Part shown: positions 37,979-41,491 of the stretch, piece by piece
How the letters are laid out: every line of letters starts with the position of its first letter
How positions within the stretch are numbered: position 1 is the first letter of the stretch
Assembly: GCF_003334355.1 (NCBI RefSeq)
Contig: NZ_QOWP01000023.1
Length of the DNA: 64,000 nt
Direction: 5' to 3' (one strand)
From: Escherichia coli
GTDB taxonomy: Bacteria > Pseudomonadota > Gammaproteobacteria > Enterobacterales > Enterobacteriaceae
Made by a program: the position numbers and the translations under genes
The notes under the pieces: model-generated
Seen by the model: the letters and a program-made list of their open reading frames with translations, nothing else
Databases searched by the model: none
Told to the model about the DNA's origin: nothing

Positions 37979-38056
37979 TGCCGGATGCGTCTACGCCTTA
38001 TCCGGCCTACGGGTAGATACGTCTCGTAGGCCTGATAAGCGCAGCGCATCAGGCGT
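37979..38056. repeat. REP/BIME element in the deoC-deoA spacer
   Basis: gccggatgcgtctacgccttatccggcctac ... gtaggcctgataagcgcagcgcatcaggcg. Confidence 0.65.
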
Positions 38057-38068
38057 AAAGCATCTTAC

Positions 38069-38848
38069 TTAGTAGCTGCTGGCGCTCTTACCGTCGCCGT
38101 GGCCCAGCGCTTTCAGCAGGCTTGCCAGCAGGCTGGAAGCACCAAAGCGGTAGTGACGCGCATCAGCCCAGTCAGCACCGAACAGTTCATCTGCGATGGC
38201 GAGATATTTCTGCGCATCTTCCGCAGTACGCACGCCGCCCGCCGGTTTGAAACCAACGGTTTTTTCTACGCCCATATCACGGATCACTTCCATCATGATG
38301 CGCGCGCTTTCCGGCGTCGCGTTCACAGCCACTTTACCGGTAGAGGTTTTGATGAAGTCCGCACCCGCTTTGATGGAGATTTCAGACGCTTTACGGATCA
38401 GCGCTTCGTCTTTCAGTTCGCCGGTTTCGATGATCACTTTCAGCAGTACATTCGCTGCCGCGCAAGCCTCTTTACAGGCTTTCACCAGGTCAAAACCAAC
38501 CTGCTCGTTACCCGCCATCAGCGCGCGGTACGGGAACACAACGTCAACTTCATCTGCACCGTAGGCGATTGCCGCACGGGTTTCTGCCAGCGCGATTTCG
38601 ATGTCATCGTTACCGTGTGGGAAGTTGGTTACCGTAGCGATTCGGATTTCCGGGGTGCCCTGCTCTTTCAGCGTTTTGCGAGCAATCGGGATAAAGCGAG
38701 GATAGATACAGATAGCGGCGGTATTGCCGACCGGAGTTTTGGCCTGATGACACAGAGCAATTACTTTCTCGTCGGTGTCGTCGTCATTCAGGGTGGTCAG
38801 GTCCATCAATTTCAGTGCACGCAGGCTGCTTGCTTTCAGATCAGTCAT
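38069..38848 (-). CDS. deoC: Deoxyribose-phosphate aldolase
   Basis: Start trimmed to [26 protein letters not shown] (259 aa). Confidence 0.97.
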
Positions 38849-38892
38849 TTCATTCTCCTGGCTTGTCGCCAATAAAATTCACCTTGCGAGTT

Positions 38893-38908
38893 TGTTAGTA
38901 TTCTAACA
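38893..38908. promoter_or_regulatory. DeoR operator (deoP2, O2)
   Basis: TGTTAGTATTCTAACA, a 16-bp palindrome matching the DeoR operator TGTTAGAA-N-TTCTAACA, about 45 bp upstream of deoC. Confidence 0.65.
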
Positions 38909-39105
38909 TCTACTCCGCAACACACTTCGATATACATCACAATTAAGGAAATCTACTTACAAGTTTGCATCACTGTAATGCGATCTGGTTCAAATAATTC
39001 ACTTTCAAATGAATGCGTCAGTGGTGGCAAACGCATCAGGATCAAAGTGAACATCACGAAACTTCTTACAATGGCGCATCACCTTCGGCATAAAAGGAAA
39101 AGAAG

Positions 39106-40656
39106 ATGCCCACTTCTGATGAAAATGCACTGCAACAACGTTGCCAGCAAATTGTCACCAGCCCAGTGCTTAGCCCGGAGCAGAAGCGCCATTTTCTGGC
39201 ACTTGAAGCAGAAAACAATCTGCCTTATCCGCAGCTGCCTGCCGAAGCCCGCCGTGCGCTGGATGAGGGTGTAATCTGCGATATGTTTGAAGGTCATGCG
39301 CCGTACAAACCGCGCTATGTCTTACCCGATTACGCCCGTTTTCTGGCGAACGGTTCCGAATGGCTGGAGCTGGAAGGCGCGAAAGATCTTGATGACGCAC
39401 TCTCTCTGCTGACCATTCTTTACCACCACGTACCGTCGGTCACATCGATGCCGGTCTACCTGGGGCAACTGGATGCGTTGTTGCAACCGTATGTTAGAAT
39501 TCTAACACAAGACGAGATCGATATTCGAATAAAACGTTTCTGGCGTTACCTCGACAGAACCCTGCCAGACGCCTTTATGCACGCCAATATCGGCCCGTCT
39601 GATTCGCCCATTACCCGTGCAATCTTACGTGCAGACGCAGAGTTGAAGCAGGTTTCACCGAACCTGACCTTTATCTACGATCCTGAAATCACCCCTGATG
39701 ACCTACTGCTGGAAGTGGCGAAGAACATCTGTGAATGTAGCAAACCGCACATCGCCAACGGTCCGGTGCATGATAAAATTTTCACAAAAGGGGGCTACGG
39801 GATTGTGAGCTGTTACAACTCACTGCCGCTGGCGGGTGGTGGCAGCACGCTGGTACGCCTTAACCTGAAAGCCATTGCCGAGCGCAGCGAATCGCTGGAT
39901 GACTTCTTTACGCGCACTCTACCGCACTACTGCCAGCAGCAGATCGCCATCATTGATGCGCGGTGTGAATTCCTCTATCAACAATCACACTTCTTTGAGA
40001 ATAGCTTCCTGGTGAAAGAAGGGCTGATTAACCCTGAACGTTTTGTGCCAATGTTTGGCATGTATGGGCTGGCGGAAGCGGTTAACTTGCTGTGTGAGAA
40101 AGAAGGGATTGCCGCGCGCTACGGTAAAGAAGCCGCCGCAAATGAAGTGGGTTATCGCATCAGCGCGCAACTGGCGGAGTTTGTCGCCAATACCCCCGTG
40201 AAATATGGCTGGCAAAAACGCGCCATGTTACACGCACAGTCGGGGATCAGTTCCGATATCGGCACCACGCCGGGCGCGCGTTTACCCTATGGCGATGAGC
40301 CAGATCCGATCACCCATCTGCAAACTGTCGCCCCGCATCATGCTTATTATTATTCCGGCATCAGCGACATTCTGACGCTCGACGAAACCATCAAACGTAA
40401 TCCGCAGGCGCTGGTACAGCTTTGCCTCGGTGCCTTTAAAGCCGGAATGCGTGAATTTACCGCCAATGTCAGCGGTAACGATCTGGTTCGCGTTACCGGT
40501 TATATGGTGCGTTTGTCGGATTTAGAAAAATATCGCGCCGAAGGTTCACGCACCAACACCACCTGGCTGGGCGAAGAAGCCGCACGCAACACTCGTATTC
40601 TGGAACGCCAGCCGCGCGTGATAAGCCATGAACAGCAGATGCGCTTTAGTCAGTAA
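39106..40656 (+). CDS. yjjI: Glycyl-radical-enzyme-like protein YjjI
   Basis: 516-aa ORF; C-terminal RVTGY motif (variant of the glycyl-radical fingerprint RVSGY). Confidence 0.9.
39492..39507. promoter_or_regulatory. DeoR operator (deoP1, O1) inside the yjjI coding sequence
   Basis: Perfect palindrome TGTTAGAATTCTAACA; centre is 599 bp from the O2 centre, matching the known O1-O2 spacing. Confidence 0.65.
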
Positions 40657-41491
40657 GATTATCCCCTTCTCCTGCGTTGACGGGCCAGGCAGTCGTCTGG
40701 CTCTGTTTTTGCAGGGCTGCAATCTGCGCTGCAAAAACTGTCACAATCCGTGGACGATGGGGCGCTGTAATCATTGCGGAGAGTGCGTGCCACAGTGTCC
40801 GCATCAGGCGTTGCAGATTGTTGACGGCAAAGTGGTGTGGAACGCTGCGGTCTGCGAGCAGTGTGATACCTGCCTGAAGAGGTGTCCGCAACATGCCACG
40901 CCGATGGCGCAATCCATGAGCGTGGACGAAGTGCTTAGCCATGTCCGCAAAGCGGTGCTGTTTATTGAAGGGATAACGGTAAGCGGCGGCGAAGCCACGA
41001 CCCAACTGCCGTTTGTAGTGGCGCTGTTTACTGCTATCAAAAACGATCCGCAACTGCGCCATCTCACCTGTCTGGTGGACAGTAACGGCATGTTGAGCGA
41101 AACCGGCTGGGAAAAATTACTCCCGGTGTGTGACGGCGCAATGCTCGATCTCAAAGCATGGGGTAGCGAATGTCATCAACAATTAACCGGACGCGATAAT
41201 CAGCAGATTAAGCGCAGCATCTGTTTGCTGGCAGAGCGCGGCAAGCTGGCGGAACTGCGTTTGCTGGTAATCCCTGGCCAGGTGGATTATTTGCAACACA
41301 TCGAAGAACTGGCGGCGTTTATCAAGGGACTTGGCGATGTTCCGGTACGCCTGAACGCGTTTCATGCCCACGGCGTGTATGGCGAGGCGCAAAGCTGGGC
41401 GAGCGCCACGCCGGAAGACGTTGAGCCGTTGGCTGATGCATTAAAGGTGCGCGGGGGGGGCCGGTTGATATTTCCGGCGCTGTATTTGTGA
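40628..41491 (+). CDS. yjjW: Radical SAM glycyl-radical activating enzyme YjjW
   Basis: 287-aa ORF with CNLRCKNC (CX3CX2C) radical-SAM motif plus two ferredoxin-like Cys clusters ([24 protein letters not shown]); overlaps the yjjI 3' end. Confidence 0.9.

Follow-up and report, generated by a model that had tools for sequence, protein, structure and literature searches.

The question raised by this locus is whether a palindrome lying within the coding sequence of yjjI serves as an operator of the divergent deoCABD operon, and what such a second role has done to the codons that carry it. The window, the 64,000-nucleotide stretch of DNA analysed here, is Escherichia coli chromosome. The region matched many E. 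coli chromosomes at 100% identity; deoC, yjjI and yjjW are annotated in these, with yjjI and deoC divergent. In an E. coli-wide 61-mer search, which is a coarse measure, at least 4977 of 5426 genomes carried the segment at ≥95% identity. We consider, with a probability of about 95%, that the palindrome is O1 of deoP1, that it overlaps the -10 of this promoter and that it is part of a DeoR-looped O1/O2/O_E system. The element is the known deoP1/O1/O_E region and is not new. The positions of the features are given in Table 1, including those of the three sites in K-12 MG1655, where all of them are also present.

Table 1. Genes, operators and promoter elements of the yjjI-deoC region, with positions in the window and, for the three DeoR sites, in K-12 MG1655.
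Feature	Position in window	Strand	Sequence or description	Position in K-12 MG1655
deoC CDS	38069..38848	-	First gene of deoCABD (annotation); ATG is the reverse complement of 38846-38848	
DeoR operator O2	38893..38908	-	TGTTAGTATTCTAACA; deo strand TGTTAGAATACTAACA; overlaps putative deoP2 -10; 45 bp upstream of deoC ATG	4617263-4617278
CRP site of deoP2	38924..38939	-	deo strand TGTGATGTATATCGAA; within a conserved stretch of the intergenic alignment	
yjjI CDS	39106..40656	+	YjjI family glycyl radical enzyme; hosts deoP1, O1 and the O_E candidate	
DeoR operator O1	39492..39507	-	TGTTAGAATTCTAACA; perfect 16-bp palindrome, 0 mismatches; overlaps putative deoP1 -10	4616664-4616679
Putative deoP1 -10 hexamer	39499..39504	-	TAGAAT, read from the sequence	
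Conserved block upstream of deoP1 -10	39526..39545	-	CGCCAGAAACGTTTTATTCG on the deo strand; yjjI codons 141-147	
Distal DeoR operator, O_E candidate	39771..39786	.	TGATAAAATTTTCACA; 4 mismatches to O1	4616385-4616400

The whole window was scanned directly for palindromes and for matches to O1 carrying up to 5 mismatches. Only two perfect 16-bp palindromes were identified, and O1, described as such in an earlier sequence-only reading of this DNA, was one of them. The other lies within an 18-bp perfect palindrome, CGCTGATGCGCATCAGCG, at 9218-9235. At up to 3 mismatches to O1, the 64 kb contained two matches, O1 itself and O2, where 0.13 were expected; two matches were obtained in one of 100 shuffles. 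O2 differs from the perfect palindrome form by one mismatch, and the two sites are 599 bp apart from start to start (39492 - 38893), in agreement with the earlier description of a near-identical palindrome at this distance, just upstream of deoC. In the yjjI reading frame, O1 comprises the third base of TAT (Y129) followed by GTT AGA ATT CTA ACA (V130, R131, I132, L133 and T134). The codons had been given as those for VRILTQ, of which V130 to T134 stand; a trivial correction applies at the edges, where Q135 falls outside the palindrome and the third base of Y129 falls inside.

The looping of DeoR among O_E, O1 and O2 is textbook material from 1985-89 and counts among the founding cases of long-range repression in bacteria. 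The control region was reportedly described by Dandanell and Hammer in 1985, Valentin-Hansen et al. in 1986, Dandanell et al. in 1987 and Amouyal et al. in 1989. The two principal operators can be compared directly with published sequences. In PMC5326754, which cites Valentin-Hansen 1986, Dandanell 1987 and Amouyal 1989, the DeoR palindromes are given as TGTTAGAA-TTCTAACA and TGTTAGAA-TACTAACA; the first is an exact match to O1, and the second is an exact match to O2 on the deo strand. That source also describes looping at deo, with DeoR bound to the operators and induction by deoxyribose-5-phosphate. The distance between deoP1 and deoP2 has been given as 599 bp, with a single DeoR loop locking the two promoters (PMC3334521). 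The deo operators have been described as three in number (PMC2222622) and natural deo looping as extending up to ~900 bp (PMC4217526), and a deoCABD promoter was placed 'in an upstream gene, yjjI' in 2019 (PMC6389913). The match between the 599 bp of the window and the known O1-O2 spacing of the looped promoters, proposed in the sequence-only reading, is supported by both the published sequences and the published spacing. Given the published operators, the 599-bp spacing and the statement that deoP1 lies in yjjI, the finding had been published before, as regards both the regulatory system and its overlap with yjjI. Set beside the descriptions of the E. coli deoCABD control region (DeoR O_E/O1/O2, deoP1/deoP2), the system, the operators, the 599 bp, the third distal site and the position are the same and nothing differs; what is added here is the measured constraint on yjjI and its dependence on deoC linkage.

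In the sequence-only reading, an operator alone was proposed to be embedded in yjjI. The operator stands, but the embedded element is larger, as the whole deoP1 promoter region lies within the gene. The putative -10 hexamer is preceded by TG at 39506-39507, which would give an extended -10, TGnTAGAAT, on the deo strand. The extended -10-like sequence TGTTAGAAT is present on the deo strand within both O1 and O2, and the consensus scan called neither promoter. For the deo strand, this sigma-70 consensus promoter and terminator scan gave nothing at either O1 or O2, a result that is uninformative because the established CRP-dependent P2 was also missed; there is no good -35 at P1 or P2, which is probably why a simple scan found neither. 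The conserved block upstream of the hexamer would lie at approximately -34 to -53 if transcription started near 39492, and this position suggests that it represents the -35 edge or a UP-like upstream part of deoP1. The codons CGA ATA AAA CGT TTC TGG within this block (39526-39543) are nearly invariant, third positions included. Rare codons cluster at O1 and at the adjoining promoter block (AGA131, CTA133, CGA141 and ATA142). Across yjjI, AGA is used for 2 of 33 arginines and CTA for 3 of 56 leucines; CGA141 is the only CGA, and ATA occurs twice, once as ATA142.

In ETEC H10407, a CRP ChIP-seq peak has been reported within yjjI, with the motif CGTACCGTCGGTCACA (PMC4287617). This motif (39430-39445, ~55 bp from O1) was considered as a selected CRP site and is probably not one, as it showed only ordinary codon-periodic conservation across genera. 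The intragenic peak might reflect a DeoR/CRP loop, cross-linking to the P2 CRP sites, or P1 itself.

Of the yjjI relatives found in species-representative genomes, 80 listed loci, ranging from Escherichia to Proteus, were compared, with 215 further relatives outside this set. By tblastn, deoC was the divergent upstream neighbour in 76 loci among those listed, from Escherichia to Edwardsiella; two further loci end upstream of yjjI, with the linkage not visible, and both carry a perfect O1. All 78 of these loci, the 76 linked to deoC and the two that are cut off, had a DeoR-like site at nucleotide 386 of yjjI, an unchanged codon offset. All 76 linked loci had O1 with 0-2 mismatches, and in most it was perfect. 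One or two mismatches were seen in some Citrobacter, Enterobacter, Kosakonia, Pluralibacter, Atlantibacter, Hafnia and Edwardsiella.

Synonymous change was counted in a codon alignment of 78 non-Proteus sequences (77 loci and the window) as Fitch parsimony steps on a neighbour-joining tree. Third codon positions averaged 15.6 steps per site across the gene, and the median for six consecutive codons was 96 third-position steps. O1 (codons 129-134) showed 3 such steps, the lowest of 511 six-codon segments, and the O_E candidate (codons 222-227) showed 4, the second lowest of the 511; these counts are not independent, because the 76 linked genomes are related, and the use of tree parsimony lessens this dependence and does not remove it. 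The conservation of synonymous sites across species, which had been suggested as a check on the palindrome, was therefore strongly positive. Codons 141-146, in the block upstream of the deoP1 -10, had 15 third-position steps. When all 16 nucleotides of each site were counted, O1 had 19 steps, most of them at the second base of codon 131, and the O_E candidate had 6, the lowest in the gene, against a median of 106. O1 was the only run of at least 4 consecutive codons in yjjI with third-position conservation of ≥0.95. Synonymous conservation over the motif was thus in excess of that in the rest of yjjI. Together with the identity of O1 to the published operator, this conservation supports the earlier proposal that the palindrome serves both as codons and as a repressor operator.

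The sequence-only reading had mentioned a third, distal operator, O_E, lying further upstream, and had not found it by eye. The existence of such a site is supported, and a candidate copy was identified by the mismatch scan. This copy occupies the third base of yjjI codon 222 through to codon 227. It is located 279 bp past O1, at a distance of 878 bp from O2, and we take these distances to be those of O_E as reportedly mapped by Valentin-Hansen in 1986 and Dandanell in 1987. The reported map position and the conservation result together point to this copy as O_E. The codons AAT/CAT GAT AAA ATT TTC ACA AAA at the site are nearly invariant, and the codons flanking them on both sides are highly variable. 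The spacing between O1 and the candidate was fixed at 279 bp across the aligned loci, as the coding sequence between them is free of insertions and deletions. At a distance of 93 codons, the two sites share a reading-frame phase, and the peptides that they encode are alike (V-R-I-L-T and D-K-I-F-T); this likeness is probably a by-product of similar DNA read in the same frame.

O2 was present in all of the deoC-linked genera, with 1-5 mismatches, and was less conserved than O1. The promoter-side half of the site (TAGAAT, within TGTTAGAAT on the deo strand) was kept, and the other half was variable. The O1-O2 spacing ranged from 567 to 626 bp across the genera and was mostly 600-603 bp, so that the value of 599 bp is not itself conserved and a strict need for helical phasing is not apparent in a loop of this size. 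A deoP2 CRP motif has been reported at a CRP ChIP-seq peak in the yjjI/deoC intergenic region (PMC4287617), and the blocks neighbouring the deoP2 CRP site were also conserved in the intergenic alignment. When the deo-strand RNA was folded, O2 and its flanks (38881-38920; UUGCGGAGUAG...AAACUCGCAA) formed an extended hairpin of -12.4 kcal/mol (z -4.24), and none of 200 shuffles was equally stable. The flanks are weakly conserved across genera. The hairpin stretch lies within the P1 leader and spans the putative start of the P2 transcript.

Proteus served as a natural control. In the four Proteus loci (L078-L081), yjjI is preceded immediately by ytjB and then by serB and radA, which are encoded on the other strand; deoC was not found within 4 kb. 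The neighbourhood is thus that of the E. coli chromosome minus the deo segment. No DeoR-like site with 3 or fewer mismatches was identified in these four loci, and the O1 and O_E motifs were absent. The codons at the position of O1 were GTG GGT GAG CTC ACC and variants of these, those at the position of O_E were GAT GCN GTN TTT GGN, and the third positions varied among the four Proteus species at both sites. The constraint is therefore gone where deoC is not adjacent, in a single clade that represents one evolutionary event and to which no polarity is assigned. The encoded residues also differ, being G-E/N/S in Proteus versus R-I at residues 131-132, and A-V-F-G versus K-I-F-T at residues 224-227; on the basis of these differences, the operator load appears to have shaped the YjjI protein. 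Hafnia and Edwardsiella were intermediate, with V-G-I-L-T and an operator containing 1-2 mismatches. The ytjB-yjjI segment of E. coli, including deoCABD, is missing at the Proteus position, which points to the gain or loss of the deo block beside yjjI.

The mechanism proposed for the region takes DeoR binding, looping, the inducer and the P1 start from the literature. DeoR, reported as a multimer of dimers, would bind O1 together with O2, 599 bp away, and with O_E, 279 bp further, a weaker site that would enhance repression through looping. The intervening DNA would loop out, so that deoP1 and deoP2 would be shut at once, and deoxyribose-5-phosphate would release DeoR. The bases of deoP1, O1 and O_E would act both as codons of the divergent yjjI and as promoter or operator, and regulatory selection on such dual-use bases would freeze synonymous sites and force the use of rare codons.

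The operators in yjjI could instead also, or mainly, regulate yjjI-yjjW. DeoR at O1 and O_E would then act as a roadblock to RNA polymerase within yjjI, antisense transcription from derepressed deoP1 would cross yjjI codons 1-129 and enter the yjjI promoter, and expression of the YjjI enzyme would be coupled to deoxynucleoside availability. The geometry is suited to such a role, as O1 lies 386 nt and O_E 665 nt into yjjI and P1 is head-on to the yjjI promoter. Furthermore, yjjI is activated by FNR, with its transcription start listed as unknown (PMC3688515), and the divergent linkage of yjjI and deoC is kept across many genera. However, the literature searched gave no expression data tying DeoR to yjjI, and deo regulation alone fully explains the conservation; control of yjjI would be an added function and not a replacement. 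We therefore regard this role as unlikely. Just as tentative is a joint or reciprocal control of the orphan YjjI and deoxynucleoside catabolism, with the YjjI sequence reshaped to carry the operators (relative to Proteus, G131 to R/K, N/E/S132 to I, A224 to K and G227 to T).

Between the two genes, a strongly conserved block is present at ~39038-39048, where it precedes the yjjI ATG by 60-70 bp and reads CTTTGATCC along the deo strand and GGATCAAAG along that of yjjI. It contains an ATCAA/TTGAT half-site that could be part of the FNR site activating yjjI.

It is very improbable that the palindrome is conserved for the yjjI mRNA or its translation, as a hairpin or as a pause at the rare codons AGA and CTA, rather than as a DNA operator. 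While rare codons do cluster at O1, and the site could pair as a 6-bp stem around a 4-nt loop, the fold of O1 on the yjjI strand (-5.4 kcal/mol, z -0.76) was no more stable than that of shuffled sequences, and O_E, although equally conserved, forms no hairpin (z -0.70). The RNA-hairpin reading was rejected for both sites on these scores. In addition, the common O1 variants (G6 to A and T4 to G) lack compensating changes, neither the motif nor the rare codons are present in Proteus yjjI although V, L and T are kept there, and the O1 sequence is that of the published DeoR operator. An Rfam search of 38000-41000 gave no match. Although AT-rich palindromes do occur, a functionless pair arising by chance can be dismissed for practical purposes, given the 0.13 matches expected in 64 kb at up to 3 mismatches, the status of O1 as one of two perfect 16-bp palindromes in the window, and its (near-)invariance across genera that share ~85% protein identity and whose third positions otherwise average 15.6 substitutions.

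The assignment of the palindrome to O1 of deoP1 places it among other operators that act through DNA looping. The lac O2 operator, in lacZ and 401 bp downstream of O1, is likewise an auxiliary operator in coding sequence that loops to a promoter-proximal operator. However, lac O2 lies in the regulated gene itself and is without a promoter, whereas at deo a full promoter and two operators lie in a divergent, unrelated neighbour. The deo repressor, unlike that of lac, is a higher-order multimer able to hold three sites. Distant operators also cooperate by looping at gal, where O_I lies in the coding sequence of galE, and at ara, where araO2 lies upstream of araBAD; gal looping is mentioned in a review of the subject (PMC4217526). 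These loops (~114 bp at gal and ~210 bp at ara) are much shorter than that of deo, the repressors are LacI/GalR and AraC, and neither system has a promoter embedded in the coding sequence of a neighbour, unlike deo.

As a discovery, the locus matters little, and the comparative count is a tidy illustration that adds detail to a known case. The third operator that had been missing is supplied here as a candidate with coordinates. The case illustrates that a promoter and two operators can be the dominant influence on the synonymous sites of a host gene, with effects on its rare codons and even its choice of residues, and that the constraint tracks gene adjacency. It may be used as a positive control for scans seeking regulatory elements hidden in coding sequence, and it raises the modest, testable question of whether DeoR and deoP1 affect yjjI-yjjW expression.

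Two further stretches of yjjI showed low synonymous variation. At the 3' end, 29 nt of the gene (40628-40656, yjjI codons 507-516) are shared with the start of yjjW, and these codons were under strong synonymous constraint, with 13-23 third-position steps versus the median of 96. This is expected because the overlapping start and ribosome-binding site are encoded there, and it provides an internal positive control for the method. The second stretch, at 39991-40008 (codons 296-301, TTC TTT GAG AAT AGC TTC), had 24 third-position steps versus the same median and was approximately the 13th lowest segment. It is unlike a DeoR operator and is less conserved in Atlantibacter, Hafnia, Edwardsiella and Proteus.

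One locus among those collected, L064 (CACSKA010000015.1), is titled Chryseobacterium sp. 18061 and carries a yjjI-deoC pair of the Enterobacteriaceae type, whose proteins are 84% and 93% identical to those of E. coli. The locus hardly differs from L070, from Citrobacter sp. 18056, and the assembly is probably contaminated or mislabelled.
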